Positions 7,291-52,697 of a stretch of DNA of 56,796 bases are shown one piece after another. Made by a program: the position numbers and the translations under genes. Source of the stretch: a virus (lineage: Duplodnaviria; Caudoviricetes); IMG/VR virus record IMGVR_UViG_3300032225_000823, positions 1 through 56,796 of that record, one strand, 5' to 3'. The first letter of the stretch is position 1, and each line of letters starts with the position of its first letter. The notes beneath the pieces were generated by a model. It saw only the letters and a program-made list of their open reading frames with translations. It did no database searches and was not told where the DNA came from.

Positions 7291-7308
7291 TGTTTGGTCC
7301 TTTTGCGA

Positions 7309-21222: not shown

Positions 21223-21237
21223 AGGAGAGAAGGAGAT

Positions 21238-21354
21238 ATGACTACGTTAGACGTACTAATTTGGATGATTCTTTACATCATGCTTCTTGGCTGCTTAGTT
21301 GCTACATTAACGGTTTGGTTCATGGTTAAGGAGTTTCTGAATGAACCGCTATGA
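21238..21354 (+). CDS. Small membrane peptide
   Basis: AAGGAG RBS, 38 aa, single hydrophobic stretch. Confidence 0.55.
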   Translation: MTTLDVLIWMILYIMLLGCLVATLTVWFMVKEFLNEPL

Positions 21355-21610: not shown

Positions 21611-21824
21611 GATAGATGACGACGCGTTTGATTTAATTATGGTTAAAACTTTAGAAGACCATATTTTGTACACTTACAGTGATTTTACTTCTTTGCACCC
21701 AGACGATGTCGAATGGAACAACAAACTTAGGGAAGCACTGTGGGTTATATTTGAGTACTTTGCCGGTGAAGAAAAGGCGAAGGGTTTGAAGGACCTCATC
21801 GAAGGAGGGGAAGATGAAGTTTGA
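21588..21824 (+). CDS. Hypothetical protein
   Basis: 78 aa, overlapping operon packing. Confidence 0.6.
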   Translation: MKMQVTVEIDDDAFDLIMVKTLEDHILYTYSDFTSLHPDDVEWNNKLREALWVIFEYFAGEEKAKGLKDLIEGGEDEV

Positions 21825-22008
21825 TGTTATTAGTTGTTATGAAACCAAAGAAGGTTTAATGGTTAGTCTTGAAGTTGATGAGGAAGGCCGTCAGTATTTG
21901 ATGGAGCGTGGGTTCAACGCGATACTTAATGAAGCCATTAAACTAGCGGAGGACACCGCTAAACTGATGGAGGAAGACCATGAACGAGAGCCGCCGGAAG
22001 GCATTTGA
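21814..22008 (+). CDS. Hypothetical protein
   Basis: 64 aa, GGAGG RBS. Confidence 0.6.
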   Translation: MKFDVISCYETKEGLMVSLEVDEEGRQYLMERGFNAILNEAIKLAEDTAKLMEEDHEREPPEGI

Positions 22009-22144
22009 GCAGTGGTGGTTTGAGAATAACGGTAAGACACACAACCCTAACGACATCTGGGACGCTGCTTGTGACTGGATGAAGGAAGAACTTATTTGGC
22101 GTATGGAACAGTTTGTGGAGAAGCACCGAAATGAGCAGAGTTGA
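21980..22144 (+). CDS. Small hypothetical protein
   Basis: GGAGG RBS; MNESRRKAFEQWWFE..., 54 aa. Confidence 0.55.
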   Translation: MNESRRKAFEQWWFENNGKTHNPNDIWDAACDWMKEELIWRMEQFVEKHRNEQS

Positions 22145-22313
22145 GTACGCCCTTGCCGAGGCACAAACGGCAGAAGATGTAATCATTATTTGTTTTGATG
22201 AGAATGGAGAACTCGCTCTTCACTCAACCATTACCCGTGGTCCAGACATTTTGTGGGCGCTTGAACTTGCCAAAGCACAAATTCTGGAGATGGGACAGCC
22301 GGAGGATGCGTGA
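22131..22313 (+). CDS. Hypothetical protein
   Basis: GGAG RBS, 60 aa. Confidence 0.55.
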   Translation: MSRVEYALAEAQTAEDVIIICFDENGELALHSTITRGPDILWALELAKAQILEMGQPEDA

Positions 22314-22495
22314 TGTCTGATTTTATGCAACGTCAGTTTGACATTAGCCAAGAGCTTATTCGTTTGATGAACCGAGAACATGAGCAACGCAATCGTATTT
22401 TTGAAAAATACGAAGAAGAACTTAAAGAAAAAGACCGTTACATTGCGAAGCTAGAGGCCACTATCCAAGCACTAGAAGTTCTAGTGAAAAAGTAG
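22310..22495 (+). CDS. Coiled-coil hypothetical protein
   Basis: 61 aa, GGAGG RBS. Confidence 0.6.
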   Translation: MMSDFMQRQFDISQELIRLMNREHEQRNRIFEKYEEELKEKDRYIAKLEATIQALEVLVKK

Positions 22496-22503
22496 GAGCT
22501 ATC

Positions 22504-22662
22504 ATGTACATCTGGTTTAATCTATTGTTATTCAGCAGTGGGCATTGGATGTACATGGATGTATTTGAAACATTAGAAGAGTGCCAAGACGAACGCAAGA
22601 TGCAAGAAATTATTAACCCCGGCGACTACTATTGTTTCCCCACACAAATTCAAAAATCATAA
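22504..22662 (+). CDS. Small hypothetical protein
   Basis: AGGAG RBS, 52 aa. Confidence 0.5.
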   Translation: MYIWFNLLLFSSGHWMYMDVFETLEECQDERKMQEIINPGDYYCFPTQIQKS

Positions 22663-22672
22663 CGAGAGACTC

Positions 22673-22891
22673 ATGCGACTTACTCAACCGACCGAAGCTT
22701 TGGAAGTTGGCCAACGATACATGATGCCGTCTGGCCGTACTGTAACCATTTACAAACTCTACAACAACTACAACAATGTGCAGGAAGTAACTCTCAAGTA
22801 CGAGCAAACCCAAGTTAAAGGGCAGAAGGAACTTGTAGACTTTTCTGAGTACAACGTGCGCAACATTTGCTACAGGCTGGCGCAAAAATGA
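22673..22891 (+). CDS. Hypothetical protein
   Basis: 72 aa, ATGA coupling to the next gene. Confidence 0.55.
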   Translation: MRLTQPTEALEVGQRYMMPSGRTVTIYKLYNNYNNVQEVTLKYEQTQVKGQKELVDFSEYNVRNICYRLAQK

Positions 22892-23157
22892 GTGACCCAG
22901 TAGACCATCCGATGCACTATAATGCTGGTACGATTGAGTGTATTGATGCTATTGCCTCTGCAACTATTGGGCTTACCGGCATTGAAGCAGTCTGTACTGG
23001 CAACATCATCAAATACACATGGCGATGGAAGAACAAAGGCAAGATAGAAGACCTCCGCAAAGCACGGTGGTACCTTGACCGATTAATAACGCATCTATCC
23101 AAGGACGAGAATGAACCTGACGCGGTTAGTGGAGACAGCGCTTCGCCCACTACTTAA
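22888..23157 (+). CDS. DUF3310 (SaV-like) protein
   Basis: DPVDHPMHY..G.IECIDAI...GNIIKYTWRW..K..IEDLRKARWYL. Confidence 0.85.
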   Translation: MSDPVDHPMHYNAGTIECIDAIASATIGLTGIEAVCTGNIIKYTWRWKNKGKIEDLRKARWYLDRLITHLSKDENEPDAVSGDSASPTT

Positions 23158-23401
23158 AGACCATACGGTGATAGTTCTCAAACGTATGGACACGCACCCT
23201 CAAGATTTCTCAAAAATATCTAGCAGAATCTGGCAAGCTAATGGATTGCGTTGGTTGGACTTGGCTATACATGGAAACTTTCCCATGTTAGACAGACTTA
23301 TCCTAGATAGGCGACTGCGCGAAATTAGCCTAACTAGCACTAAAAATTCTGTGCTGGAGCTTCTTGTTAATGGTGAACACGACAAGGACGTGCCTTTCTA
23401 A
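23111..23401 (+). CDS. Hypothetical protein
   Basis: 96-aa ORF ending 2 nt before the polymerase start. Confidence 0.5.
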   Translation: MNLTRLVETALRPLLKDHTVIVLKRMDTHPQDFSKISSRIWQANGLRWLDLAIHGNFPMLDRLILDRRLREISLTSTKNSVLELLVNGEHDKDVPF

Positions 23402-32489: not shown

Positions 32490-35400
32490 TTAGTCTTCAT
32501 CTTCTTCCTCGCCCAACTCGGACGGGAACCTACCATATCTACCCATTCCTTCCAACATTGGGTATGCCTTGCGGTCCACATTAATGCCGCCTTGACGTTG
32601 AGCGATTGCTTGCTGTTTAGCTCTAGATTTGATTGTCTTCCGGATAGCATCGTTGGGTAGACGATATGCAGGTGAACTACCATACAACGCGTTGAAGTCA
32701 GCCTTGCGTTTAAGGACCTTATCCATTAATTCTTTTTTGATTTCTGGGTCAGTTTCTTGATAGGCCATCCATGCTTGGTCAAGGATTTCTTGGCGGCGGT
32801 CACGAATAGCAATATCTTTAGACTTTACCTCAAAGATTGTAGACTTTTTGCGTTTCCAATCTTCAGGCTCAAACCCAAAAGCTTTATAAAGAACATCCGC
32901 CTCGTTAACTTCATCCTTGGAAATAAGCTGTTTACCAGACCTAGTCTTTTCACCTTCGTTTGCAACGCGGATAGCTACCATCAAAGAACGAACACCGGCA
33001 GGAACAACTATCTCTATACCGCGTTCGTATTTACCCTGACTCCACAAATCAATAGCTGCGGCCCAGTCTTGAAAGTAGCTAGTAGTGGGACCCAACATAC
33101 CCAGCATAAAATTCTTAACTGCATCTACGTTGGTTTTTGCGGCGGAGCTACCTTCTTCAGATACCCACAATGACGGGATGTCATAAACAAGCCTACCTTC
33201 AGTGGCGATATTTAGCTTTTTAGCCACCCAGCCACGGCCAATCGTAGCCCCACCAAGCTCAGGCACATGTTCTTCTAGCCAATTCATCAGGAAGTTATCC
33301 GCGTCAAATGGCACTTCTTCGTCATTATCTGAATACAACGCGTGGATAAGCCCAATCATCTTGGAGATAAGCCACCAGAACGGCGTGCCTTTCAATCCAG
33401 TAAAGGCGTAGGACAGAAGAACAATTGCAGAAAGAGTACGAATAGCCTGCCAACGCATCTCAGCGGATTGTTTATCAAATTCCTTAGCGGCGTCTTCACC
33501 GAGGTCTTTTACGATACGCTCGCGTTCTTTCTTCGCGGATAGCTGGAGAGCCTTAGTTAAAAGTTGATATTGGAATATGGTCTGTTGTACTACAAAGCTC
33601 TTAAACTGAAGGGGCAGGGCGCGCCAGTCTTTAAAATAGCGACCACGTTGCAGAGTCGAAGGTTCACCAAAAGCACGGCGGGTAAAATTAACGGCGTCTT
33701 GATATGCGCGTTCAAATGCTTCTTCTTCATCAAACGTTTTGGACCCGTCCGCGTTTTTCTTGTCCAGATATTTTTCATGCGACAAGTCAAAGTGAGCTAA
33801 GGCACCGGACTCACGCATGAGTCGCTCACTTAAATGGAACGGGACAGCAATTGCGTTTAATCCAGTTGTGATAATCCCTTGTTGTTTGTCGCTGGGAGTA
33901 TTAGCAGTTGTGGCCACATCGTACATCTGGGATACGTTGAACACGTTTTCCGCAACCATGCGGTCTCTAGCTTTTTTAATGTCAGGGTCTAGTTTCTTGT
34001 TAAATTCGATACCAATAGAAAACAACCCGTTCGGTGCTTGTTTTGCTACAGCCGCACGATGCTTAAAATTATATTGAATAAGTTTGGGAATACCTAATAC
34101 CGGATACTCACCAAACAAAATAGATGCGGCTTGTATATTGCCGCCTACAAAGTTAAACACTGAAGAAGCAACAGACGATAGATACTGATAGAAATTAAGA
34201 GTTTGAAACAGCCGTACCGGGAGCGGACGATTTGGCGGCGACATAACTTGGTCCGTCCTAAGCTCCATTTCTTTGATGTAGTCCTTAGCAACAGCCTTCT
34301 CTTCTGCCGAGGAAGTTGACGACTTTACGTACTCTCTAGCCGAACGCAGGGCTGCGTACATATCTTTTGCGTATACAACCTTCGGGAAGAAGTTAGACAC
34401 CTTTAGCACCGAATCCGCGAAAGACCGCTGCATATCTGGGTTGGCACCGGCGCGTAACTTACGACGGGCAAACATCTTACGAAGGCTACCAGTAGGCGCA
34501 AGCTGCAGGATTAGTTGTTGAAGCTCATTAGTAATAGCGGTCTTAGCTTTGTTCAGAGCCTCATCTGCTTCGGCATCCGGATTGGCGCTTACCTTTTCTA
34601 ACTGTTTATCAATACTGTTACTGACAATATCCTTGACGCGGTCCATCGCAATCTTCATACCAATCGCGTCATTAAATACTTCGCTAAACCCATTGCCAGC
34701 ATCAAAGAAAGCTTCGTCAACCTTAGCTTCAATCTCGCTTTCTTTCACACCCTGTTCTTTAAGTTTTTCCCTATAGGCATCCTTGGCAATATCTAGTTCA
34801 GCGTTGCGCTCAGCCTCGCTCTCAAACATCTCAAAGCCCTTACCAACATCAGGCAAGTTGTACTGATACCAAAACTGACCCACGCGGAACATGTGGAAAT
34901 ACGGCCCTTTGATTACGGGCATAATCTTTTCTACGTAACTTTTAGCTTTTGTTTTTGCTGCCGTTTCTGATTCACCCGCCATCCGGTAGGTACGATACAT
35001 TTCACCTTCCATGTACGTACGGACGTTATTAAACATAACCTTATAGAACTTGAGGCGGTCGCGGTAAATTTGCTTTGCTTGTTCGCCACCGGGCAATCTG
35101 CCTAACTTACCCCAAAGACCATTTAGATAGGCATTTGAGGTATCCGTATCTGGGTCAACTTCTGACGCGGTGGCTTCCAACTCAATTTTTTCTTCAAGCG
35201 CTACGGCTTCAGCAAACTGTTTGTTTGCATACATTAACTTACTGCGCTCTAGAATTTTAGCCCCGGAGGTTTCGATACGCTTACGCAGCGCTTCAAGCTC
35301 GCCAATCTTAGCGGTAAGTACATCAAACTGCGGCAGCTTTGTGCGGAATCCACGTCTACCTTTTTCCACATCAAGTACGTCAAACTCCATACCGGCAAGG

Positions 35401-38400
35401 TCAATTACCTGATAGTTAGGCAGGGCACCAAGAACTGCACGGCGAGTTTTACTGGGGGCAGTACGGAGGAGGGCGGATACTTCCCGCCTTACATCATTCC
35501 ATTTTGGATACTGTGTGTAGTTCTTAGATATACGCGAGAAGAACCCACGACCACTTCTGGAAGAGGCTTGATATGGTTCGGGAGGAGTTACTTTAGCTTG
35601 CTTAGGAACTCGTTTAGGTCTTGGCTGTTTGCCAGCACTTCCCTCGCCTTCCGCAGGTCCTTCAGGTAATTTTTCGTAGCTCCTTGCTGTATACCCATCA
35701 CTTCCCAAGTCTGAAGCAGGGCCTCTAGCTGTGGTTTGGTAGGAGCCAGCTTCTTTGAGGCGATTTCCAATAGGGGATAAATTGTCATTACTTACTCCTT
35801 CATTAAACACTCGTTCCATTTCTGACTGAATGTCAGAATTACGCGCAACAAGCCCCCTGAAATTTTTAAGAAATGCATCTAAATCAAAATCTGTATTGTT
35901 GGGAACGGCTAAAAATGCAGAAATCTTTTGCATTTCTGCGGGAAATTCTTCATTATGGCTACGTACTTCATGGTGCGCAAGTTCATGGACCATAGTACCA
36001 AACATAGCAGAAGCTGCTCGTTCCGGTGAAACGCTGGCACTAAAAAGTTTATTCCCATACGAAACAGCGGCGGGGTTTAGATACATACCCCAAAAAGGCA
36101 CTCTTGTACTGACACCACGATACTCTATATCAAAACTAATACCTATCACTTCTTTATCAAGTGATACTTCTTTATAAGAATTGTATTTATCGTATCCCAT
36201 TTCTTTAGCTACTACATCACGAAGCTCCATAAAAGCTTCACCCAATTCCCGCATATAGCTATAAAACCTAGGGCCAAAACTATCTTCCATTAATTCAGTA
36301 AATGAAAGCCCTTCGTTTTTAACAAAAAGATTATCGTTAAGAATCGGCGCATCAGTACGAAGTTGGTCCTGTGGAATAACTAGCGTATTTAAGTCAATCT
36401 TAAAACTAGACGCTTCCGCGCTGGTTATTTCAGGTACTGGGCGCCCATTAATTTCCAGCTTACCGTTTATTACAGCCATTGAGTCGCCCGGACGAAGTAG
36501 ATTCGTGGGTACTTCCATAGCAGGTAATGGGGGCGAAAGTGTTTCCGGCTGGGTTGGCCCAGAAGGTTCTAAATATCTAACCGTGCCGTAATTTGTAGCG
36601 TTACTTTGAAGGTCTGAAACGTTGTATAGCTGTTTTACATAATTAAAAATTTTATCAAAATCACCAGCAACCGCCGGAGAAAATCGTTGACGATTTAAGT
36701 CAAATGGGTAACCTAGGTCCTCTGCCCTAACTTTAGGGTGAACGTCAAGATAAAAATTATATTTAGGGCCTTTGTCTATTTTTTGTGTAAATTGATAGAT
36801 ACCATTAGATAAAACATGTACTCTACTTTGGTTCCATTCATATTGTTCCGGCTCTCGCGTTACATACATAACCGCGTCACCCCAACCAAATTTAACTGTA
36901 GTAAGGGGTGAATGCTCATCAATAGGGAAGTTCTTGCCTACTGGTATTGATTCTGAGTATGAATAATTATTAGCGGGGTCAGTTAAGGCACCAAAAAGAG
37001 TAGCTTTATCGCGCAGCGTATGAAAATTGACATCAACATTTCTAAATAACGGGCTAGTGCGCAGGGAGGGGTAACTATGCGCCCAATTATCAAGTTCTAT
37101 AGGCTCATCCTTACCGGTATCAAGATTATGAAATGTTTCCGGAACCCCAACTTTTACGTACGTGCCGGAATTGTCTGGAAATAAATTTTGTAGTTGTTTG
37201 TTTTTAGCTACAGCTTCATCCCACGATTCGACCGTAATTTTGGGGGCAACACCCGGATTGCTAAGCGCTTTTTCTAAATCAGGCCCAGTAGTCTCTAGCG
37301 TGCTTACTTTTCCATCACGGACAGTAATGACTTTAATATTTTTATTACCAAACAAAAACTGCATCTTTGCAATACCCAAACCACCAGACGCACTTTCGGT
37401 TTCTTTTTGAGTACCGGCAATTTCTAAAAACTTAGTGGCAAGGATGTTCGGCTCCATCCCCGTGCCGTTATCAACCATTTCAATGGTTCTATTTCCTTCG
37501 TTAACACCGATATTAATTTTTCCTTCGGAAATGGCACCCGATTCCAAAAGCGGTTTAATACCATCAAACGAATTCTGAAACAGTTCTTTAACTGTAACTT
37601 TAGGTAGATTCTCTAACGAACCGTATAATTTATTTCCCAGCAGTTTTGTTAAACGACCAACGTCTGCACCGGGCTTCGTTGAAATTTCTTCGTTTTGCGC
37701 TTTGAGTTGTTCTATTTCGTCGTAAGCGCTTTGAATTTCATCGTATTTTTTCCGTGCCGGAGTATTCGGCATGGGCGGTTTGCCGGACGAAGTTAATAGG
37801 TCATCTTTTAACTTGCCTAAGTCTTCGAGAAGCTTGTCATTTGACGGGCCAACTGGCTCAACAGGCGGCGGTGGTTTACCTTCAGCAGCAGCTTGTTGTT
37901 CTTGTTTAGCCTTGTTTTTTTCTTCAACGGCGTCGTATCGTTGCTGGGCTTGGGATACAGTATTTCTAAGCTCTTGAACGCGTTCAACATTTGTAGGGTC
38001 AGCCTCTCCTAACAAGCTCTCTACGCCACGAACTTCCGCTTCAAACTTGCTAAGGTTTCGTTTTGCTTGGGTAAGTTCAAGCTTAGCCTGCTCAGATTCA
38101 GTACGAGTTTTGCCCAACTTGCGGACGCGCGGGGCCGGAGTGTAAACCGGCAATCCCGTTTCTGGGTCTATTTCTTCCTGCTTGCTTTCCAGTTCTGCAG
38201 AGAGTCTAAGCCGTTCATTAATCTCATCCTCATCCAAATCTTCAGACGATTCTTCGGCAGGTAACAAACCTTTCTTCCGCAGGTCAGCATCAATCTTTGC
38301 ATAGTCAACAGTCTGCGGTGTAAGAATCTCATCTTCAAGAGCGGCTGGTTCTACTGGCTTAGCGGCGGGTTTTGCAGCAGCTTTGGGTGCTGGTGGCGGT

Positions 38401-39395
38401 TCCTCACCAACAAACGGTTCTTTCCGCTCTTGAGGCTGCTGCGGTTGTTGCGGTTGGGCGGATAATTTTTTAGTTACATATTGCGTAGCTTTAGAGGCAG
38501 CGCTAACTAAACCCGCTTGAGTGGCTGTAGAAATTAATGTTTGATAGGCTGCGGCAGGTCGTTCGGCCCAGTAATCTGCCCATGTTTTATCTGGATTAGC
38601 AATGGCAGTATCAATTGCGTCTTGAGCAAGCGTAGCAACTTGCTCACTTGGAAGTTCTCTAATTAACAGCCCAGCAATAAATTCTTTTGCTCCAGTTTTA
38701 CCAAACTTAGAAACCAAAAAACCCATTGGAAGTTTTTCGGTAATAATTTCAGTGCCGCCTTCACCTAAAGCACCCAACGCAGCTTCTCCGGGAGTGGCCC
38801 CCCGATTCATATATTTATTAAAAGCTTCAGCAGCAACCTGCGTGCCGCCTACAAGAGCCGCGATAGTACTAGCACCTAAAGCCGTAGCCCCGGCAGGGAG
38901 CGCCGCTACACCTGCAGCAATGGCGGGTGCGGTTTTAACTAGACTTTCTGCACCGCCGTAAATGCCACGAAGGGTAGGGTCTTCAATTTCCGGACGCGCT
39001 AAGTCAGTTCTAAACTCAGCTTGAGCGCCACGTTTCTGTTGGGTTTTTGCGTATTCTTTAAGGTTAGCTGCGGTTTCAGTAGCGCCAAGTTTTTCAGCCA
39101 CGGCAGAACCGGCTTCACCAAAAGCACTCTTGATACCAGAAATAGTTGCCGGAATCGCTTCTCCAGCAGCAGTGGAAAGGCCAGAAAGAATAGAAGACAG
39201 CGAAGCTTCGGGACCGCGCGGGGCCTTTAGCTCAGGGGCCGTGCCTGCCTCTACATCAGCCATATTTTGACGGATGTTTTCTTGCTCAGTAATCTTAGGC
39301 AGAATGTCTTTTTCAATCGCGGACGTAATATCTGCCGCAGACATATTATCTGGGAACGTCACGTTTCCCAGCTTGGGGACAAATACAACAGGCAT
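32490..39395 (-). CDS. Large putative internal virion/DNA-ejection protein with GHKL ATPase and HExxH metallopeptidase
   Basis: 2301 aa, last gene of the ejection cluster; KELFQNSFDG, DNGTGM, GGLGIAK; HELAHHEVRSHNEEF. Confidence 0.75.
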   Translation of the reverse strand: MPVVFVPKLGNVTFPDNMSAADITSAIEKDILPKITEQENIRQNMADVEAGTAPELKAPRGPEASLSSILSGLSTAAGEAIPATISGIKSAFGEAGSAVAEKLGATETAANLKEYAKTQQKRGAQAEFRTDLARPEIEDPTLRGIYGGAESLVKTAPAIAAGVAALPAGATALGASTIAALVGGTQVAAEAFNKYMNRGATPGEAALGALGEGGTEIITEKLPMGFLVSKFGKTGAKEFIAGLLIRELPSEQVATLAQDAIDTAIANPDKTWADYWAERPAAAYQTLISTATQAGLVSAASKATQYVTKKLSAQPQQPQQPQERKEPFVGEEPPPAPKAAAKPAAKPVEPAALEDEILTPQTVDYAKIDADLRKKGLLPAEESSEDLDEDEINERLRLSAELESKQEEIDPETGLPVYTPAPRVRKLGKTRTESEQAKLELTQAKRNLSKFEAEVRGVESLLGEADPTNVERVQELRNTVSQAQQRYDAVEEKNKAKQEQQAAAEGKPPPPVEPVGPSNDKLLEDLGKLKDDLLTSSGKPPMPNTPARKKYDEIQSAYDEIEQLKAQNEEISTKPGADVGRLTKLLGNKLYGSLENLPKVTVKELFQNSFDGIKPLLESGAISEGKINIGVNEGNRTIEMVDNGTGMEPNILATKFLEIAGTQKETESASGGLGIAKMQFLFGNKNIKVITVRDGKVSTLETTGPDLEKALSNPGVAPKITVESWDEAVAKNKQLQNLFPDNSGTYVKVGVPETFHNLDTGKDEPIELDNWAHSYPSLRTSPLFRNVDVNFHTLRDKATLFGALTDPANNYSYSESIPVGKNFPIDEHSPLTTVKFGWGDAVMYVTREPEQYEWNQSRVHVLSNGIYQFTQKIDKGPKYNFYLDVHPKVRAEDLGYPFDLNRQRFSPAVAGDFDKIFNYVKQLYNVSDLQSNATNYGTVRYLEPSGPTQPETLSPPLPAMEVPTNLLRPGDSMAVINGKLEINGRPVPEITSAEASSFKIDLNTLVIPQDQLRTDAPILNDNLFVKNEGLSFTELMEDSFGPRFYSYMRELGEAFMELRDVVAKEMGYDKYNSYKEVSLDKEVIGISFDIEYRGVSTRVPFWGMYLNPAAVSYGNKLFSASVSPERAASAMFGTMVHELAHHEVRSHNEEFPAEMQKISAFLAVPNNTDFDLDAFLKNFRGLVARNSDIQSEMERVFNEGVSNDNLSPIGNRLKEAGSYQTTARGPASDLGSDGYTARSYEKLPEGPAEGEGSAGKQPRPKRVPKQAKVTPPEPYQASSRSGRGFFSRISKNYTQYPKWNDVRREVSALLRTAPSKTRRAVLGALPNYQVIDLAGMEFDVLDVEKGRRGFRTKLPQFDVLTAKIGELEALRKRIETSGAKILERSKLMYANKQFAEAVALEEKIELEATASEVDPDTDTSNAYLNGLWGKLGRLPGGEQAKQIYRDRLKFYKVMFNNVRTYMEGEMYRTYRMAGESETAAKTKAKSYVEKIMPVIKGPYFHMFRVGQFWYQYNLPDVGKGFEMFESEAERNAELDIAKDAYREKLKEQGVKESEIEAKVDEAFFDAGNGFSEVFNDAIGMKIAMDRVKDIVSNSIDKQLEKVSANPDAEADEALNKAKTAITNELQQLILQLAPTGSLRKMFARRKLRAGANPDMQRSFADSVLKVSNFFPKVVYAKDMYAALRSAREYVKSSTSSAEEKAVAKDYIKEMELRTDQVMSPPNRPLPVRLFQTLNFYQYLSSVASSVFNFVGGNIQAASILFGEYPVLGIPKLIQYNFKHRAAVAKQAPNGLFSIGIEFNKKLDPDIKKARDRMVAENVFNVSQMYDVATTANTPSDKQQGIITTGLNAIAVPFHLSERLMRESGALAHFDLSHEKYLDKKNADGSKTFDEEEAFERAYQDAVNFTRRAFGEPSTLQRGRYFKDWRALPLQFKSFVVQQTIFQYQLLTKALQLSAKKERERIVKDLGEDAAKEFDKQSAEMRWQAIRTLSAIVLLSYAFTGLKGTPFWWLISKMIGLIHALYSDNDEEVPFDADNFLMNWLEEHVPELGGATIGRGWVAKKLNIATEGRLVYDIPSLWVSEEGSSAAKTNVDAVKNFMLGMLGPTTSYFQDWAAAIDLWSQGKYERGIEIVVPAGVRSLMVAIRVANEGEKTRSGKQLISKDEVNEADVLYKAFGFEPEDWKRKKSTIFEVKSKDIAIRDRRQEILDQAWMAYQETDPEIKKELMDKVLKRKADFNALYGSSPAYRLPNDAIRKTIKSRAKQQAIAQRQGGINVDRKAYPMLEGMGRYGRFPSELGEEEDED

Positions 39396-39407: not shown

Positions 39408-41135
39408 TTATTGTTTAGGAACTTTCTGGAGTCCCTTAGACGGGTCGTATACGTAGTTTGGCACAACTGGCTGTCCCGTTCCAGCAGATTGTTGGGTTAC
39501 ATCGCCGCCAAGCCAAGGTGTGAACATTTGTCTAGCAAAACCACCACCGGCCTGCACTTCATTTACCCCAAATTTGTCTCTTTCTTCAGCGAGAACTTTA
39601 TTCTTAAGTTGTTCGGCTTTCCACGTATAGTAATCTTTTTGGGTCATGGTCTTGCCGTTCGTATCTTTTATTTCTTTCCCGCCTTCTACTGCCGGTTTTT
39701 TATCCGCATCAGCAGCGCCCGCTTTAGCTACAGCCGAGCGGTAAAGGTCTGCGGTTGGTGAGCCACCAGATAGCAGTAAATCATTAGTAGACCGACCTGC
39801 GCCTGCTAAGTTAATACCCGCTTTACCGCCAGCAAACGAACTTGGTTCTAAGGCCATAGCGGCTGCAAGAGCGATTCTGGAATCGGACAAACCTTTAGAT
39901 GCGGGGTCTTTCTTAAGAATTGCAAACATGCGGTCAAATTTGTCGCCTTGGTTAACCTTAATCCGGTCAGTAACCGCAGTGTAAAACTTAAGCCTTTCTT
40001 CAGTAATACCGCGAGCAGCTTTTGCTGACTCACCAATAAGGTTGCCTTGAGCAGTAACTGCTTGAATGTTGAGCTTAGCCACGTCACGTTTATCGGCCTT
40101 GGCGTCTTTAAGCCTTGCGTCGGCTGCATCCAAATCACCAACTTTTCGTGCTGCTTCGGCCATTTTGTAGTTCATACTCATTGAGGTATAGGCATTGCGA
40201 GCCGCTTCTTCTGCAGCCTGTGACTTATCGTAAGCATCACCAAATTCGCTAAGGCCCTCACCAAACGCGGTGCCGAAATACGGCTGCTTAGTACTAGCCA
40301 TTTTGGCAAAGCCTTTAAACGCCGACCACAATTCTGAATTTTGATACCGCTTATCAATTCGCGCCTTAGTATCTGCAAGCATACCCGAGACTTCTGCTTC
40401 TACAGGGTCAAAAATATCACGGCGTTCTTTTATAGCAGCCTCTCTAATTTTCTTTCCGTCTTCTTCAGAAATCTCACCCGCTCTTACCAATGCCGGAATA
40501 CCAGCATTAAGCGCATTTATTTGTGAGATAGCTTCTTGCTGCCCTGTCGTAGGGGCAGGTAGGTTCAGGCCGGAGTAGCCTTCAGCCTTGGTGGGAGCTT
40601 TGGTTGGAAGCGCGGCAACGCCCGAATCTTCCTGCGCGTTTAGTTGGCGGTCAATCTGGTCAATAGCAGCGGCTATTTGCGCTTTTTGCGGGCTGTCGGC
40701 AGGCAGCGCCGCATATTGTTGGTTTAAGAATTCTAAATTACTTTGCAGTTGTTCTTCGTTAACACCGCCGCCGCCATCAAATGCAACGATACCACCGCCT
40801 GCCATATTGTGTTCTTGGAACATGTGGTCGGGTACATGAAGTTCAGCTAAGCCGCCGTGGGCGGCGTGCATTACAGGCTGCTGGGGTTGCGTTTGCTGCG
40901 GGGGCGGCATTTGTTGTTGCTGTGGTTGACCCTGCATAACCTGCTGGATGAGAGCATCTTTTACCGTACCCTGCGGAGGTTGAGCTTGGTTACCGCCTTC
41001 TTTCATTTCTTTTTGGAATTGCAACGCCGCCATAGCCAAAAACTGCGGTACCTCTGCACTAGGGTTCTGTGCGTACTTTACCAATACGTCTTGGGGAGCA
41101 AACTTAAGGTGTTCATAAAGTTGAATTTGATTCAT
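39408..41135 (-). CDS. Putative DNA-ejection/internal virion protein
   Basis: 575 aa, Ala/Gln-rich helical, MAGGGIVAF motif; synteny. Confidence 0.6.
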   Translation of the reverse strand: MNQIQLYEHLKFAPQDVLVKYAQNPSAEVPQFLAMAALQFQKEMKEGGNQAQPPQGTVKDALIQQVMQGQPQQQQMPPPQQTQPQQPVMHAAHGGLAELHVPDHMFQEHNMAGGGIVAFDGGGGVNEEQLQSNLEFLNQQYAALPADSPQKAQIAAAIDQIDRQLNAQEDSGVAALPTKAPTKAEGYSGLNLPAPTTGQQEAISQINALNAGIPALVRAGEISEEDGKKIREAAIKERRDIFDPVEAEVSGMLADTKARIDKRYQNSELWSAFKGFAKMASTKQPYFGTAFGEGLSEFGDAYDKSQAAEEAARNAYTSMSMNYKMAEAARKVGDLDAADARLKDAKADKRDVAKLNIQAVTAQGNLIGESAKAARGITEERLKFYTAVTDRIKVNQGDKFDRMFAILKKDPASKGLSDSRIALAAAMALEPSSFAGGKAGINLAGAGRSTNDLLLSGGSPTADLYRSAVAKAGAADADKKPAVEGGKEIKDTNGKTMTQKDYYTWKAEQLKNKVLAEERDKFGVNEVQAGGGFARQMFTPWLGGDVTQQSAGTGQPVVPNYVYDPSKGLQKVPKQ

Positions 41136-41138: not shown

Positions 41139-43064
41139 TTATCCCACCAGTTCTTTGAGTCGTACAGCAGCTAAACCTTCAGAATATTTATTTCTAACCG
41201 CACCGCCACGGGCGAAGGCTCCAAAAGCTTTGGCTGCGGTAGCGAGCGAGCCAGCTCCACCAATTAACTGCGCGGCTAGACTTGGCGGCTGTTGATACGT
41301 TGTAGATGTTTGTCCGGGTTGCTGCGGTAAACCACGGATAATGCCACTATAGTTATATAGCTGGTCCCACGGATACTGGCGTTGGTTAAGAAAATCTTGA
41401 TAGCGTGTATCCATGTACTGCTGGTTTAAGGCTTGTTGCTGAGCAGCAGTGGAAGTCTGTAGGCCGTAGCGGGCGATGTCCGCGTTTTGTTGGTTAAGGC
41501 CTAAGTTACCCAGCAGTTGTGACCCAGCAAGACCCTGTTGCATACCAGCAAGCCCAATCTGACTACCAAGTCCAGCGGCGTATTGTCTCGCTTGTTCAGA
41601 GTTTTGTTGTGCCTGCAGATTAGCTGCTTGATTAAGCTGCTGTGCCGTTAGGTTTTGGTTAGCTCCAAGACTTTGCACACCCAGAGCTGCTTGTAGGTTT
41701 TGTTGGTTTGTAGTCAAACCCGTTTGCTGGTTAGCAAGTGCTGCCTGTAATGCTTGTTGTGATGAATACCCTTGAGTCTGCAGTTGAGACGCAAGGTTCT
41801 GCACATTAGCCTGCTGTTCATTACTGAGATTAGCCAAAGCCATCTGCAAGCCAGTCTGTGTGCCAAGTTGTTGTGTTTGCAGATTAGCAGCAAGGTTTTG
41901 TTGGTTTGTAGTCAAACCCGTTTGCTGGTTAGCAAGTGCTGCCTGTAATGCTTGTTGTGATGAATACCCTTGAGTCTGCAGTTGAGACGCAAGATTCTGT
42001 ACGTTTGCTTGTTGTTGATTGCTAAGATTAGCCAAACGGTTTTGCAAGTTGGACGTGGTGCCTAGGCTCTGCACACCAAGAAGCGCATTAAGGTTTGCTT
42101 GACCTGCAGTAAGACCGGCTTGTTGGTTGGCTAATCCAGCTTGAAGCCCCGACTGAACATTAAGTTGCTGTGCTGCCATACGGCGAGCTTGGTCGCGCTC
42201 AAACTGGGACTGGGCATTTTCATACGCAGACTGCTGGCCCTTGGCGTAAATATCGCCAATCTGTTGTTGTGTGTTACGGTCAGCTTCTGCTTGAAGAAGG
42301 GCTTGTCTGCCGCCTCCAAACGTGCCTCGCCCAATAGACGCCATAGCACCTTGGTTCTTTTCAATATCAGCGCGACGTTGAACTTCACGAGCTGCAATAT
42401 CCGAAACTTGCTGTTGAAACGGCGACATATACTTCGACGCATCTGCTCCGCCAAATTCACTAGACGCGGCTCGTTCAGCAGCGACCTGTTGGGGGCTTTG
42501 CATCTGGTACTTCTCAAGCTGCGCCATGTAGTTAGTATTGTCTTGCGCCCCCTGCATAGAATAATTTTGCAGTTGTTGGGCTTGAACATCCTCAGGCCGC
42601 TGCATTTGATAGTTTTGCAGGTTGGGGTTATACGAACCCTGCGCCCCGCGCATGGAAAAATTCTGAAGCTGTTGGGCTTGAACATCACCCGGTTGATTCA
42701 TTTGGAAATACTGAAGCTCAGGCGACTGTACTTGGTCGGCCCTAAACTGCCCCGGCTGGTATCCAAAAGCTTGATTTAAGCCAGCTAGCCCCGCAGCATA
42801 CCCCATCCCCATGCCAGCCTGAGCGCCTTGGGTTGCTTGAGCAAACTGCCCCGGAGTCTGCATGTTTGCAATTTGATTTTGCAGATTTCTTTGCTGGTCA
42901 GTAAAGCCAGCAATGCGTTGGCCGGAATATGGAACGTAATCTTGATTAGACGCAGCCTGCGCGCGTTGAGCTACGTCAGTAACGTACGGCTCAAGATACT
43001 TGGGGATATTAGTTTGTGTTACGGTCTGGCTACTAGGAGCGCTAGACCCGCCTTTTTTACCCAT
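41139..43064 (-). CDS. Putative DNA-ejection protein, Gln-rich with internal repeats
   Basis: 641 aa, MGKKGGSS N-terminus, GTFGGGRQ motif; follows the GNAT-like gene. Confidence 0.65.
   Translation of the reverse strand: MGKKGGSSAPSSQTVTQTNIPKYLEPYVTDVAQRAQAASNQDYVPYSGQRIAGFTDQQRNLQNQIANMQTPGQFAQATQGAQAGMGMGYAAGLAGLNQAFGYQPGQFRADQVQSPELQYFQMNQPGDVQAQQLQNFSMRGAQGSYNPNLQNYQMQRPEDVQAQQLQNYSMQGAQDNTNYMAQLEKYQMQSPQQVAAERAASSEFGGADASKYMSPFQQQVSDIAAREVQRRADIEKNQGAMASIGRGTFGGGRQALLQAEADRNTQQQIGDIYAKGQQSAYENAQSQFERDQARRMAAQQLNVQSGLQAGLANQQAGLTAGQANLNALLGVQSLGTTSNLQNRLANLSNQQQANVQNLASQLQTQGYSSQQALQAALANQQTGLTTNQQNLAANLQTQQLGTQTGLQMALANLSNEQQANVQNLASQLQTQGYSSQQALQAALANQQTGLTTNQQNLQAALGVQSLGANQNLTAQQLNQAANLQAQQNSEQARQYAAGLGSQIGLAGMQQGLAGSQLLGNLGLNQQNADIARYGLQTSTAAQQQALNQQYMDTRYQDFLNQRQYPWDQLYNYSGIIRGLPQQPGQTSTTYQQPPSLAAQLIGGAGSLATAAKAFGAFARGGAVRNKYSEGLAAVRLKELVG
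41695..41993. repeat. 101-bp perfect direct repeat, 198-bp period
   Basis: 41695-41795 identical to 41893-41993. Confidence 0.9.
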
Positions 43065-43504: not shown

Positions 43505-44908
43505 TTACGCCGGAAGAAACTTATGCGGGTTGATTTGACGACCTTGTTTAGCAGTCCCCGTGCGGGCTTTGCGGACCTTGTCCATCATTGCATAAAGACG
43601 TTGCGCACCAGCCTTTGTGGAGCCATTACCAAGGTGCGATACTACATCTGCCGGTACAACAAACTCACCATCAGCCAAACGCGCCGGTTGTCTACCAGCA
43701 ATAGTTGCGGGAATAGAGTCACTCATACCATCACCCGGACCATCAAGATACCCACCCCGTGCATAGGCCATAGGCGACGGCTGTTGTGCAATTTGGAACG
43801 GTTGCGGGTCAGGGTTTTGCATTTTGAACGACGCAAGACCATATCCATCACGGCTGAGGTTGGTAGCAGCACCGGGGTTATCCGGATTGTATGTATCTAC
43901 TTGCCCGCCAGCAGCATATTCACCAGCAGCTAAAATACGTGGATTCTTAAAGTACATATACTCAGAAGAGTCATTGGGGTCACGGTCAGTCGGAAAGCTA
44001 ACATCCCGCACTAATTTGTACGGACCTTTGTAATTTGACTTTTCTTCTTTGGCTGTGGGAATTTTAGCTGGACCTTTTGCCCCAAGGAATGGCAGTGTTG
44101 CTCCTGCAACGGTCCCCGGATTATTTTTAATGAATTTCCAAGGGTCAGCCATGATGTTTTTGACACCTTGACTAAACGACGGCGCGCTTTCAGCAAATTC
44201 AGTTGCGGCTAAATCAATTACCCCTTTTCCGGGCGTGCTAGTAAGCCCCGCGGCTAATCGGTCAGCGCTAGGCAGGTATGACGAAGTAGTAGCAAGTGGC
44301 TGCACAGAAGCATTAGAAACCCCAAACGCAGACGCAGGGGAGGGGTTAAGAACTGAAGAAGACAGGGCAGGGTTTGCCCCAGACACGGCGGATAAAGCTG
44401 ACCCCGGGTTAGTAATCATTGAAGACGACGCTGCTTCAACCGGAGTGAGGCTCTTTGCCGTATCCATCAACGTTTCTGGTAGCGCAGAAGATGTTGCTGC
44501 TTTAGTAATACCTGCTTCGGCCACACTATTTCCAAGACCAACCCCAGTTGCAGCGCCCAAGCCATAAGATAGACCCTTAAGCGGGTCGCCTGTTAACGCC
44601 CAGCCAAGCGCACCGGTAGCAAGACCAGCTTCAAGTCCAGTCAGGCCAAGACCCGAAATACCAAATGCACCGGGACCGAGGAATGCGCCCAAAGCAATAG
44701 GCGCTACAATTCCAAGAATGTCACCAAGAAAGCCAGCTTCAGGTAGGCCGGTATGCGGGTTAATAGTCAGTGAGCCACCATGCGCCATAGCCAAAGACTG
44801 AAGGCCAGCAACCTCACGGGGTTGCATGTGAACAAGCATGGTATCGCCGCCGCGTCCAAGACCGGCAAGGCCACTAGCTACAGGTTGCATTTGGTAGTTT
44901 TGGTTCAT
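43505..44908 (-). CDS. Putative internal virion protein
   Basis: 467 aa; GRGGDTMLVH...INPHTGLPEA and GPGDGMSDSIPA...LADGEFVVPADVV motifs; Gly-rich hydrophobic segment. Confidence 0.65.
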   Translation of the reverse strand: MNQNYQMQPVASGLAGLGRGGDTMLVHMQPREVAGLQSLAMAHGGSLTINPHTGLPEAGFLGDILGIVAPIALGAFLGPGAFGISGLGLTGLEAGLATGALGWALTGDPLKGLSYGLGAATGVGLGNSVAEAGITKAATSSALPETLMDTAKSLTPVEAASSSMITNPGSALSAVSGANPALSSSVLNPSPASAFGVSNASVQPLATTSSYLPSADRLAAGLTSTPGKGVIDLAATEFAESAPSFSQGVKNIMADPWKFIKNNPGTVAGATLPFLGAKGPAKIPTAKEEKSNYKGPYKLVRDVSFPTDRDPNDSSEYMYFKNPRILAAGEYAAGGQVDTYNPDNPGAATNLSRDGYGLASFKMQNPDPQPFQIAQQPSPMAYARGGYLDGPGDGMSDSIPATIAGRQPARLADGEFVVPADVVSHLGNGSTKAGAQRLYAMMDKVRKARTGTAKQGRQINPHKFLPA

Positions 44909-49805: not shown

Positions 49806-52697
49806 TTAGTTGTACTCCACTAACACATAACCTCTATAACCAACGTTTCCAACTGTTGGAATTGGAATCGGTCCGGGTGCAGCAGACCCACCACCTCCGC
49901 CTAGCCCACAAATTATGCCGCTATCTTGAACTAATGAACCACCCCCATAATTGGTACCGCTTGTGCCACCCGTAAAACTCGCCTGACCAGACCCCGTGCC
50001 GCCAGCGCCTTGTTTTGTTGGTGCTGGAGCTGGTCCACCCAATCCGGCCCCTCCGCCTGTTGCGCTAATAAGTGAACCAAACGAACTTGGTCCGCCAGCA
50101 CCCGCAGACCCACCCGCAGGACCAGCCGTTCCTGCTGTGCCTACTGTGACAGTTTGTGGTGTACTGACTGGATAGTATCCAATAGCTCCACCACCTCCAC
50201 CGCCACTACCGCCAGCACCGAAACCACTTCCCCCGCCCCCACCACCACCACCCGCAACCAATGTAACTTTGACAGCAGTAGTAGTCGGCGGACAAGTCCA
50301 TGTGCCGGGTGCCGTAAAGAGTTGCGTATTGGAAAGCGGTGCGGTTGAAGTAGCAGCAATTGTGATGCTACCAGAGCCGGGAGTAACAGAAATACCGGTG
50401 CCAGCGGTAAGTGATGCTTTAGTCAGGGTGTTGCCGGTGCTGTTACCAATCAAAAGTTGGCCATCAGTATAAGTAGTCTGGCCAGTACCGCCGTTGGCCA
50501 CAGGCAACGTACCAATCACACCCGTAGAAAGCGGCAAGCCAGTACAGCTAGTCAAAGTTCCAGACGACGGGGTACCAAGAACTGGAGTTACTAGAGTTGG
50601 GCTATTAGATAAAACCAAGCTGCCCGTACCCGTATTGGTTGTTGTTCCGGTTCCGCCGTTAAGCACTGGAAGAGTGCCGGTAACGTGAGTGGTCAATCCA
50701 ACTTTACCCCACGTTGGGGCTAGGTTTACACCACCAGAAATTAAAGCATTACCTGCCGCCACATCTGCTAATGAAGAAAGCGTAGTAGCACCAGAAGCGT
50801 AAAGAATGTCGCCTATGTTATAGCTTGATTGCCCAGTGCCGCCGTTGCCTGCCGGTAGCGTTCCGGTAACATGAGTAGTCAAGCCAATCTTGCCCCATGA
50901 AGGAGCTACACCAACGCCGCCTGAAATAAGCGCATTACCGGTGGCAACATCGGCGAGTTTAGACAGCGCTGTAGACCCAGAAGCGTAAATAATATCGCCA
51001 ACCGTATAGGAAGACTGGCCAGTACCGCCATTAGCTGCGTTCAAAGTACCAGACAGAGTAATAGCGCCCGAGGTGGCGGATGATGGAGAAAATCCGGTAG
51101 TTCCTGCGCTGAACGTAGTTACACCCGCTGCGGCGGTGGCGCTTGTATATAAGTTGTAAGATGAGTACCACTGCGTAGTGGTAGAAGCATTAAACTCCAT
51201 TACTCCGTTAACAGCAATTTGAATCGAGGTATTAATAGCAAGCGCGTCAATAAACCCGCTCGATGCCGGATATACGTTAACTGCGTTAGCGCCTTTGTTA
51301 ACAATAACAATTCGACGGCCAGTGGTGGCTGTGGGTAGCGTTACACCAGACGGATTTGAAGCAGCCGTTGTAATGACGTTGTAGTCATTAGTTAAAGCGC
51401 CTTGGCCTTGGGCGTTTGTACCGGCGGTCACGGATGCCGCGGTACTAAAAGTTTCTCCAGATAACGCAGGGGTTGTTAAGCTAGGGGAAGTTGCCAATGC
51501 AACTACAGTACCGCTACCAGTAGTGCTATAAGACGTACCCCAAGCCGAACCTGTTGAGTTGGCGATACCAGAGCCGGGATAGACTTGGGATGCCACAGAT
51601 GCCCAAGATGTGTTGGTACCATCAGTAGTTAAATACTTACCACTGTTAGATGTTTGAGATGGAACAAGGTTATTAAACGCCGCGTTTGCGGTAGTTGCGT
51701 TAGTACCACCATTGCCAATACCTAAAGTACCAGCAAGAACAATATTTCCAGTAGATGCCGTATTGGGAGTTAAACCAGTTGAACCAGCACTAAAAGAACT
51801 AACTGAGCCAGTAGACGACGGAGTCATTAAGTTATACGACGAATACCACTGAGTTGCGCTAGAGGCATTAAAAATCATTACCCCGTTTGCAATAATTTGA
51901 ATCGAGGTATTAATCGCATTACCGTCGATATACGCGCTAGTGGCGGGGTATACATTGATTGGGTTTGCACCCTTATTAACCACAACCACACGACGACCAG
52001 TAGTTGCAGCGGGTAGAGTTACACCAGACGGGTTTGCGGCGGCGGTTGTGATGACGTTATAGTCACTTGTCAAAGCGCCTTGACCTTGGGCATTGGTGCC
52101 AGCAGTTACAGATGCAGAAGTGCTAAATGTTTCTGCCGACAAAGATGGCGATGTAAGTGTTGGGGCCGCAGATAAAACAACACTACCTGTACCAGTGCTG
52201 GTTGTTACCCCAGTGCCGCCAGATGTTACCGCAAGGGCAGAACCTAGAGTAAGTGCAGGAATGTAGTCTTGCCCCGGAATAACGTCTGTGCCGTTAGCAT
52301 ATAAAATAACAGTGCTACCGTTTGGCACCACAGTACCAGTTGAAGCCGCATACTTAACAGTTAATGAATATCCACCACTAATACTATTTTTAATAATGTA
52401 CAGTTTTTGAACAGATGTAGACGGAATAATTACTGTAGATGCCGCACCGGGTGAACCAGAAAAACTAAGAAATAACGACCTAAAATCTTGGTTGGCCGTG
52501 GTGTTTGTATAGGCAAGAGTAGTTGACGTGGTTGTTAAGGTTACGGCGGAAAAGCCACCAATCGCTTGCTCAATACCCCGCGTAGTGCTGGTTGTGTCCC
52601 CCAAATTATTGTTTGTGGTGGTACCCCAGTTTCCAGTGCTGCCGGTTTCGCCTACGGCTATTAATTCTAATTTAAGTGTTGAGTATGTGCTTGCCAT
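49806..52697 (-). CDS. Tail fibre protein
   Basis: 963 aa, G/T/S-rich with GGTG repeats, internal duplications and a C-terminal Gly-rich domain. Confidence 0.8.
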   Translation of the reverse strand: MASTYSTLKLELIAVGETGSTGNWGTTTNNNLGDTTSTTRGIEQAIGGFSAVTLTTTSTTLAYTNTTANQDFRSLFLSFSGSPGAASTVIIPSTSVQKLYIIKNSISGGYSLTVKYAASTGTVVPNGSTVILYANGTDVIPGQDYIPALTLGSALAVTSGGTGVTTSTGTGSVVLSAAPTLTSPSLSAETFSTSASVTAGTNAQGQGALTSDYNVITTAAANPSGVTLPAATTGRRVVVVNKGANPINVYPATSAYIDGNAINTSIQIIANGVMIFNASSATQWYSSYNLMTPSSTGSVSSFSAGSTGLTPNTASTGNIVLAGTLGIGNGGTNATTANAAFNNLVPSQTSNSGKYLTTDGTNTSWASVASQVYPGSGIANSTGSAWGTSYSTTGSGTVVALATSPSLTTPALSGETFSTAASVTAGTNAQGQGALTNDYNVITTAASNPSGVTLPTATTGRRIVIVNKGANAVNVYPASSGFIDALAINTSIQIAVNGVMEFNASTTTQWYSSYNLYTSATAAAGVTTFSAGTTGFSPSSATSGAITLSGTLNAANGGTGQSSYTVGDIIYASGSTALSKLADVATGNALISGGVGVAPSWGKIGLTTHVTGTLPAGNGGTGQSSYNIGDILYASGATTLSSLADVAAGNALISGGVNLAPTWGKVGLTTHVTGTLPVLNGGTGTTTNTGTGSLVLSNSPTLVTPVLGTPSSGTLTSCTGLPLSTGVIGTLPVANGGTGQTTYTDGQLLIGNSTGNTLTKASLTAGTGISVTPGSGSITIAATSTAPLSNTQLFTAPGTWTCPPTTTAVKVTLVAGGGGGGGGSGFGAGGSGGGGGGAIGYYPVSTPQTVTVGTAGTAGPAGGSAGAGGPSSFGSLISATGGGAGLGGPAPAPTKQGAGGTGSGQASFTGGTSGTNYGGGSLVQDSGIICGLGGGGGSAAPGPIPIPTVGNVGYRGYVLVEYN

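Follow-up and report, generated by a model that had tools for sequence, protein, structure and literature searches.

A predicted Hsp90-like ATPase joined to a putative Wss1/SprT-type zinc metallopeptidase in giant proteins of uncultured phages

The complete virus record IMGVR_UViG_3300032225_000823 of IMG/VR (56,796 bp; estimated completeness 90%) was analysed and is called the window in the following. Its largest gene, an open reading frame (ORF) of 2301 amino acids (aa) at 32490-39395 on the minus strand, raises an unusual question, as a sequence-only reading had found in the middle of the protein the motifs of a GHKL ATPase together with those of a zincin metallopeptidase. Do these motifs belong to two enzymes, do the two form a unit, and at which stage of a phage infection might such a unit act? 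We report that aa 571-1230 are one autonomous cassette of two enzymes, predicted to be an Hsp90-like ATPase and a Wss1/SprT-type protease, and discuss how the two could work together.

Two paired enzymes in one cassette

The ATPase and HExxH motifs quoted in the sequence-only reading are all present at their places within aa 571-1230. The span given there, 35720-37680 (aa 572-1226), coincides with the block that is defined by homology, as the alignments of relatives extend over residues 1-650 of the 660-aa piece. The block had also been described as bounded by Pro/Lys/Glu-rich linkers, and the composition agrees: the summed fraction of P, E, K, and Q is 0.37-0.44 over aa 301-600 and 0.30 over aa 1201-1300, compared with about 0.2-0.25 elsewhere. 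The cassette and its borders comprise the following features.

37686-38465, minus strand: linker 1, aa 311-570, Pro/Glu/Lys/Gln-rich
35706-37685, minus strand: cassette (P0002), aa 571-1230, made up of the N-domain and middle domain of the ATPase, a small beta subdomain (about aa 960-1010), and the zincin
36996-37685, minus strand: GHKL (Bergerat) ATP-binding domain, aa 571-800, with matches to Pfam HATPase_c_3 and to Hsp90 N-domain structures
aa 590-597: LYGSLENL, a motif quoted in the sequence-only reading
37560-37592, minus strand: N-box (motif I) VKELFQNSFDG, aa 602-612
37455-37472, minus strand: G1 box DNGTGM, aa 642-647
37365-37385, minus strand: G2 box GGLGIAK, aa 671-677
36381-36995, minus strand: middle (transducer-like) domain, aa 801-1005, with structure alignments to GRP94, MORC2, and SMCHD1
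36687-36710, minus strand: conserved loop YPFDLNRQ, aa 896-903, which contains R902
35766-36356, minus strand: predicted zincin metallopeptidase domain, aa 1014-1210 (helix, three-stranded sheet, HExxH helix, further helix)
35955-35987, minus strand: HELAHHEVRSH, the putative HExxHx5H zinc site
35943-35987, minus strand: HELAHHEVRSHNEEF, aa 1137-1151, the zinc-site motif as quoted in the sequence-only reading
35526-35705, minus strand: linker 2, aa 1231-1290, Gly/Pro/Lys-rich

An exhaustive search with the cassette returned 831 cluster representatives at E ≤ 1e-3 (clusters defined at 50% identity), 242 of them at E ≤ 1e-30, and of 7159 candidates in a word-indexed search, 277 proteins had E ≤ 0.001. 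Both halves are present in 242 of the 252 retrieved proteins; nine of the ten proteins with a single half are cut at the protein end, and one (P0235) is internal. A stand-alone protein of 595 aa (P0271) spans the whole cassette with 23% identity (E 3e-31), and the whole cassette model is also matched by one UniProt entry of viral origin (E 2.5e-54). That AlphaFold2 model of aa 571-1230, built from an alignment of 31 proteins, has a predicted local distance difference test (pLDDT) value of 83.8 and a predicted template modelling (pTM) score of 0.72. Because the halves are paired in nearly all retrieved proteins, a stand-alone form exists, and the whole model has this pTM value, the cassette is one unit. 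The stand-alone protein is encoded on a 9.8-kb metagenome contig, and in its metal site, HEFTH, the third His is replaced by Tyr.

Conservation was assessed in an alignment of 191 sequences, comprising our protein and 190 others that cover the block end to end. Three close relatives excepted, these sequences share about 31-47% identity with ours. In the ATPase half, E604 (100%), N608 (99%), D611, D642, G644, G646, G671, G674, K677, and R902 are conserved to 99-100%, with R902, within the YPFxxNRQ loop, at 100%, and G672 to 96%. In the protease half, H1137, E1138, and H1141 are conserved to 100%, H1147 to 96%, and the downstream E1154 to 95%. Since the catalytic residues are conserved to 95-100%, both active sites are under selection.

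The ATPase half

The N-terminal part of the cassette has the features of the GHKL superfamily, i.e. motif I with the catalytic Glu and the Mg-binding Asn, a DxGxG motif II, a Gly-rich lid, and, in the model, the Bergerat fold. Pfam HATPase_c_3 was found in 27 of 31 family members; our protein passes narrowly (E 1.7e-5, 25.3 bits at a cut-off of 25). The ESM Atlas returned only HATPase_c_3 clusters for the cassette, most of them viral.

The top matches of Foldseek in the Protein Data Bank (PDB) were HtpG, Hsp90, TRAP1, and GRP94 (E 1e-13 to 1e-11, about 410-430 columns), with MORC2 and MORC3 ranking shortly after them. VIA-align was run against 48,161 chains and gave 33 chains at Z ≥ 8 in total for the whole cassette model. 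The best was GRP94, with Z 20.2, a root-mean-square deviation (rmsd) of 4.0, and 310 aligned residues; the alignment spans model residues 1-435, and its middle-domain part covers GRP94 up to residue 511. Isolated Hsp90 N-domains match model residues 7-227. ParE, topo VI-B, topo II, MORC, MutL, and SMCHD1 were found at Z 15-19; the matches to such DNA-handling GHKL proteins span model residues 1-364, with MORC2 and SMCHD1 reaching residues 429-430. A profile of the 31 proteins was compared with the PDB, and TRAP1 and HtpG were retrieved at E 0.005-0.008 in alignments that include the segment before the N-box. Only Hsp90-family chains fell below E 0.03, and MutL had an E value of 0.33. In a single-sequence phmmer search of the PDB, the lowest E value was 0.085.

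At the level of the fold, aa 571 to about 1005 are thus modelled as an Hsp90-like GHKL ATPase with a middle domain; the Bergerat fold claimed in the sequence-only reading was found by Foldseek, PDB profile, and VIA-align alike. ATP binding and hydrolysis by the cassette are predicted from its motifs. R902 lies in the predicted dimer/ATP-lid interface (model residues 321-338), and we take it to be a candidate for the Hsp90-type catalytic-loop arginine, a correspondence that is presumed.

Besides fold and motifs, the cassette has an N-terminal strap, a middle domain, and a predicted closed dimer via strap and lid in common with the Hsp90 family (HtpG, TRAP1, GRP94), which also contributes the best structural match and is the only PDB family below the profile value of 0.03. 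In contrast, identity to these proteins is about 13-16%, the cassette is embedded in a giant phage protein, and a C-terminal dimerisation domain is absent: beyond model residue 435, the beta subdomain and the zincin follow instead. Because this domain is lacking, we rejected the view that the ATPase half is an Hsp90 orthologue.

Proteins of the T4 rIIA family likewise consist of a phage GHKL ATPase and a following domain, and match at the level of the fold (E about 1e-11 to 1e-9, about 380-430 columns). This match is limited to the ATPase part, and in contrast to the cassette, rIIA has no zincin and is a separate, non-giant protein.

Rows 24 and 26 of the ESM Atlas search were clusters with PF25856 (MPN635_N, ‘ATP-binding protein’) from viruses and Bacillota, at 0.94-0.95 by language-model features. 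They may represent a distant cellular branch of the cassette ATPase.

The protease half

The last 200 residues of the cassette were also modelled alone (pLDDT 88.8, pTM 0.87). In this model, the secondary structure elements follow the zincin order, i.e. helix, three-stranded sheet, HExxH helix, and further helix; in the cassette model the HExxH motif sits on helix 554-570. A third zinc ligand is present as well. With the isolated zincin, the top row of VIA-align was Wss1 (Z 8.2 and rmsd 3.2 over 113 aligned residues of 128); a second match of the Wss1/SPRTN type had Z 7.6 and SPRTN Z 5.4, and most of the 40 rows after Wss1 are zinc metallopeptidases or zincin-like proteins, SPRTN among them. 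With the whole cassette model, Wss1 was the only non-GHKL entry within the top 50 of VIA-align. The fold searches therefore returned both the GHKL and the zincin fold, although Foldseek alone missed the isolated zincin, which was recovered by VIA-align.

At the level of Pfam, a YgjP-like match stayed below the cut-off, and among the 31 relatives WLM was found in two and SprT-like (PF10263) in one at E ≤ 0.001. The VIA-align match together with the invariant HExxHx5H motif leads us to assign aa 1014-1210 as a putative Wss1/SprT-type zinc metallopeptidase, which agrees with the SprT-like zincin that had been proposed. Wss1/SPRTN and the cassette protease have in common a small zincin core and the HExxHx5H spacing of three histidines; Wss1 is the top fold match, and to this are added the sub-threshold match to WLM and the SprT-like match of one relative. 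In contrast, identity is 10-17%, the Pfam scores of our protein are below the cut-offs, and the cassette protease is fused to a GHKL ATPase and not to ubiquitin-, SUMO-, or DNA-binding modules.

In P0256-P0260 and P0262, i.e. in six of the seven cassette-bearing relatives of our C-terminal region, the zincin part of the cassette hidden Markov model matches weakly a second time (E 0.27-0.6), about 130 residues after the cassette. These proteins carry a precomputed hit to LPD39 (PF18858), a domain that is flagged as possibly enzymatic by Iyer et al. 2017 (PMC5512222). LPD39 might be a divergent zincin.

A predicted closed homodimer

When aa 571-1010 were modelled as a pair together with ATP and Mg, the predicted homodimer had an ipSAE value of 0.58; the highest of three controls was 0.00. 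At least 91% of the contacts are common to the runs, and the pLDDT of the partner is at least 75. Of 30 proteins solved as same-chain pairs, 20 reach the mark set for this tool, as does one of 23 solved as single chains. Three elements make up the predicted interface: the N-terminal strap (model residues 1-23), which each copy would exchange with the other, the lid (79-105), and a loop of the middle domain (321-338). Closed GHKL dimers have this type of interface. The cassette is therefore predicted to form a GHKL-type closed homodimer, with the restriction that this result may reflect the likeness to GHKL dimers that have been solved.

The giant protein and its class

The cassette is followed by a long C-terminal region, and the remaining features of the gene are these.

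32490-39395, minus strand: giant ORF (P0001), 2301 aa, last gene of the minus-strand structural block
38466-39395, minus strand: N-terminal region, aa 1-310, Ala/Gly-rich, with one hydrophobic segment at aa 163-182
32493-35525, minus strand: C-terminal region, aa 1291-2301, of the PLxRFG/‘tail-700’ kind

We take ‘tail-700’ to denote the C-terminal tail of the protein. The NCBIfam model NF032893 (PLxRFG) is matched at aa 1962-2277 with 203.4 bits, compared with a cut-off of 100, and the eponymous motif is divergent in our protein (PYFHMFRVG). In tblastn searches, giant proteins in 21 cultured phage records matched the C-terminal region with their own C-termini, at 21-25% identity. The PLxRFG giants of cultured podoviruses, i.e. 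Erwinia phages PEp14 and Pavtok, Klebsiella phages LASTA and SopranoGao, Ochrobactrum phage POI1126, and Vibrio phage 1F273_PE002, resemble ours in the C-terminal 650-700 aa (E down to 1e-24 by tblastn; 3.6e-29 and 5.7e-24 in separate BLASTP searches) and in closing the structural block. They differ in their size, from about 3760 aa or more (the Vibrio phage coding sequence) to 4914 aa (PEp14), in their annotated methylase or transglycosylase, and in the lack of a cassette (tblastn, E ≤ 1e-3).

A profile named ‘DarB-like antirestriction’ (phrog_10089) matches aa 1611-2276. P1 DarB and the proteins labelled in this way, such as Bcep22 gp75 and JC1 gp69, are also giant proteins of the virion module. 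In contrast, the match is limited to the last 600 positions of a profile of 4647 positions, Pfam finds neither a methylase nor a helicase domain in the giant protein at E ≤ 1, and the last 1556 aa of JC1 gp69 are dissimilar. The label is thus not transferable to our protein.

Polyvalent domains were found in several of 31 cassette-bearing proteins: LPD38 in five, LPD39 in three, and ART-PolyVal, ddrB-ParB, LPD22, and LPD23 in one each. According to Pfam, the LPD, ART-PolyVal, and ddrB-ParB domains all lie outside the cassette. Because they carry these hallmark domains, the cassette-bearing giants belong to the polyvalent proteins as Iyer et al. 2017 define them, and the protein of 2301 aa, which joins an ATPase and a zincin, is itself a giant multidomain phage protein with unrelated enzymes. 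That study distinguishes 12 peptidase clades and proposes that polyvalent proteins are processed by their own zincin peptidases, either within the head or once they have been injected. The zincins described there share with ours the HExxH peptidase within a giant multidomain phage protein, the relatives with LPD, ART-PolyVal, and ddrB-ParB domains, and the proposed self-processing; as far as that text goes, the invariable coupling of the peptidase to an ATPase sets ours apart.

GHKL, HATPase, Hsp90, histidine kinase, and PLxRFG are each mentioned zero times in the main text of Iyer et al. 2017, the supplementary domain tables being outside the search. One article (PMC7824862) mentions both polyvalent proteins and GHKL, without linking them, and a literature search on Hsp90-like internal virion proteins of phages yielded nothing relevant among the matches listed. 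The sequence-only reading had named no characterised ejection protein with this pairing, and a characterised protein with it was likewise not found in the cultured phages and the literature searched, as far as the texts were available. GHKL ATPases, zincins, and polyvalent proteins are all known already; a description of the fused cassette was not found in that literature.

Occurrence and base composition

A pattern scan of IMG/VR yielded 170 pattern matches; 115 contigs encode relatives, and 80 loci were kept for comparison. In 80 of 80 loci, the cassette lies inside a giant open frame (1212-5219 aa), usually with 1000-1400 aa after it. Most loci keep the order of a variable N-terminus, the cassette, and a C-terminus of about 1000-1400 aa. 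The region after the cassette is homologous to ours in 53 of the 80 loci; the N-terminal region is variable among cassette-bearing proteins, and only 10 of 79 loci have one with homology to ours. In one relative, the layout is the same; its cassette is 57-59% identical to ours and its C-terminal region 76%.

We compared 14 further proteins with our C-terminal region: seven contain the cassette and seven do not, two of the latter carrying LPD39, or LPD39 together with LPD5 and LPD1. The cassette is thus optional in the wider family. The proposed alignment of orthologous ejection proteins was uninformative, because the positional counterpart in HTVC027P, one of the closest cultured relatives by portal protein, is dissimilar. 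No cassette match was found in 50,697 phage records (distant blastn; tblastn at E ≤ 1e-3). In 72,556 plasmids there was no full-length cassette, only three matches at the level of the N-box that cover 16% of the query. One genome each of 185,579 species gave 74 pattern matches and no relatives, with strict patterns that could miss divergent copies.

The GC content of the cassette is 0.406, compared with 0.470 in the rest of the ORF and 0.479 in the window (standard deviation 0.025). The cassette is the stretch of 1980 bp with the lowest GC content of the contig, only 0.27% of such windows being equal or lower, and its GC content at third codon positions (GC3) is 0.314, compared with 0.361 and 0.438 in the flanks. 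The block is therefore more AT-rich than its flanks, as had been noticed. These values and the optional occurrence would suit a foreign insert acquired recently and specifically by this phage lineage, and acquisition had been deduced from the AT-richness. However, all 80 related loci have a cassette with a lower GC content than the remainder of the ORF (mean difference -0.053; GC content of the loci 0.37-0.60), and GC3 is lower in 57 of 80. The arrangement with a C-terminal region is conserved, in most loci in its order and in 53 of the 80 in homology, and the relative with 57-59% identity in the cassette has the same layout. Because all 80 loci share the skew, low GC content is a property of the family, and we rejected it as a sign of recent transfer; a recent, lineage-specific insertion is very improbable.

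Genomic neighbourhood

The minus-strand structural block has the order terminase, portal, and head protein (935-8847), followed by tail-fibre-like genes, a virion structural protein, several unassigned ORFs, and the giant gene at the end, which is thus located downstream of the tail-fibre and virion genes. The structural operon that the giant gene closes is podovirus-like. The closest cultured phages were determined with the portal protein (4729-7290, minus strand). It is 40-44% identical to those of the Pelagibacter phages HTVC027P and HTVC023P and of Synechococcus, Planktothrix, and Roseobacter phages, and 33% identical to Caulobacter phage portals (33-44% in all). This similarity points to an aquatic group of podoviruses.

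Three large ORFs are found directly upstream of the giant gene, all on the minus strand, at 39408-41135 (575 aa), 41139-43064 (641 aa), and 43505-44908 (467 aa). One weak match to a tape-measure family (E 7.7e-4) excepted, they belong to no PHROG family, and they are candidate genes of additional internal or ejection proteins. Matches to phrog_863 were obtained for two neighbouring tail-fibre-like ORFs, at 49806-52697 (963 aa) and 52710-55661 (983 aa), minus strand. The only tRNA gene and only Rfam match in the window is a tRNA-Leu gene with the anticodon UAA (21134-21222, plus strand), located between the early region of small ORFs and the replication genes. From 21200 to 23400 (plus strand), a series of ORFs with 52-96 aa, none of 100 aa or more, precedes the DNA polymerase gene; this run resembles an early-gene cluster.

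Discussion

How could an Hsp90-like ATPase and a protease in one giant phage protein work together? The reading that we favour, and to which we assign about an even chance, is that an ATP-gated, dimerising, chaperone-like ATPase licenses the fused protease, which would most likely process the giant protein itself after delivery. We infer that the giant protein is delivered with the virion. Virions being without ATP, the ATPase could work only inside a cell. ATP binding would there close and dimerise the ATPase halves of two copies, and this closure would license or position the fused protease. After delivery with the DNA, the protease would most likely cut the linkers of the giant protein, so that its N- and C-terminal parts would be released or activated; a chaperone-like refolding of the delivered polypeptide would be part of the process. 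The constant fusion to an ATPase favours peptidase action in a compartment that contains ATP.

Several results weigh against this reading. At the level of sequence families, the NCBIfam model for HSP90 (NF010683) is matched with E 2.6e-6 and 26.2 bits, far below its cut-off of 455, and WLM (PF08325) with E 0.0022 and 18.5 bits, below a cut-off of 26. The fold match of the zincin is middling (Z 8.2), and Foldseek gave no match for the isolated zincin model at E ≤ 0.001. Topoisomerases, MutL, and MORC have the ATPase fold about as well (Z 15-19), so that the client need not be a protein. The producing cell contains ATP as well, and action at assembly is thus possible. With respect to delivery, the match to a PHROG ‘internal virion protein’ is weak (E 0.0013), and HTVC027P gp85 (1342 aa), the positional counterpart as last gene of the structural block, has no detectable similarity to the giant protein. 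JC1 gp69 was found to be associated with the virion by mass spectrometry, according to the available text (PMC9144972); its last 1556 aa have no BLASTP similarity to our C-terminal region, nor to the giant proteins of PEp14 or the Vibrio phage. The accessible parts of the articles on vB_KpnP_ZX1 (PMC9505181) and on the Ochrobactrum phage (PMC5492332) contain no proteomics of the PLxRFG protein, and in the literature examined, virion proteomics was found for no detectable homologue of the giant protein.

The shared fold of the ATPase half leads to an alternative, namely a host-directed effector. GHKL and middle domain would form an ATP-dependent DNA clamp, as in MORC, MutL, and topoisomerase modules, and the protease would degrade host proteins on the entering phage DNA, e.g. 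restriction or nucleoid proteins, resulting in anti-defence by proteolysis. Wss1 and SPRTN are DNA-dependent proteases, and the anti-restriction protein ArdC also has a metalloprotease. The presence of Wss1 (Z 8.2) and SPRTN (Z 5.4) among the best zincin matches is compatible with such a role, and so are the DNA-handling GHKL modules at Z 15-19, the fold-level match of rIIA-family phage proteins to the ATPase part (E about 1e-11 to 1e-9), and the conflict domains ART-PolyVal and ddrB-ParB in other cassette proteins. Host targets of polyvalent-protein peptidases are also allowed for in the accessible text of Iyer et al. 2017. However, only Hsp90-family chains reach E < 0.03 by sequence, with MutL at 0.33, and the top structure match is GRP94, with an alignment that runs through the longer middle domain of the Hsp90 type. 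Pfam found no DNA-binding domain in the giant protein, and PADLOC gave no match. On balance, we regard a host-directed effector as rather unlikely.

Still less probable, in our view, is a role in the producing cell, where the ATPase would help to fold the giant protein or load it into the procapsid, and where maturation of this protein or of neighbouring virion proteins by the protease would precede or accompany packaging. The producing cell would supply the ATP, and the gene lies within the structural operon. According to Iyer et al. 2017, some virion proteins require a peptidase domain for their encapsidation, and processing in the head is suggested. In contrast, seven of the 14 proteins with the same C-terminal region and the cultured PLxRFG giants lack the cassette, so that the assembly of this class of giants does not need it, and a stand-alone form of the cassette exists. 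The marginal Pfam scores might even suggest a degenerate, non-catalytic structural remnant, but this is hardly credible, as both catalytic sets are conserved to 95-100% in 191 sequences at mostly about 31-47% identity.

The favoured reading, i.e. an ATP-gated protease that acts after delivery, would have consequences for the processing and activation of giant polyvalent proteins. The options surveyed in the accessible text of Iyer et al. 2017 are processing in the capsid, processing after injection, and host targets, and the constant fusion to an ATPase narrows them to a compartment with ATP. Tentatively, the cassette could be an ‘arrival sensor’: the virion-delivered ATPase would be idle in the ATP-free capsid, would dimerise on cytoplasmic ATP, and would switch on the Wss1-like protease, which would cut the giant protein into active parts or cleave host proteins bound to the incoming DNA. 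This is possible, though we consider it doubtful. If true, it would be a general and undescribed way to time the activation of injected proteins, in hundreds of uncultured phage lineages. The cassette is a unit of about 650 aa that can be tested directly, with clear catalytic mutants.

For the Hsp90-like branch of GHKL ATPases, the cassette adds a new context and, as a new partner, a putative protease of the Wss1/SprT kind. With 831 clusters and 115 IMG/VR contigs it is abundant, yet no full-length copy was found in the cultured phages, plasmids, and species genomes that were searched. Because it is abundant in uncultured viruses and was not found in these sets, the cassette marks a blind spot of culture-based phage biology.

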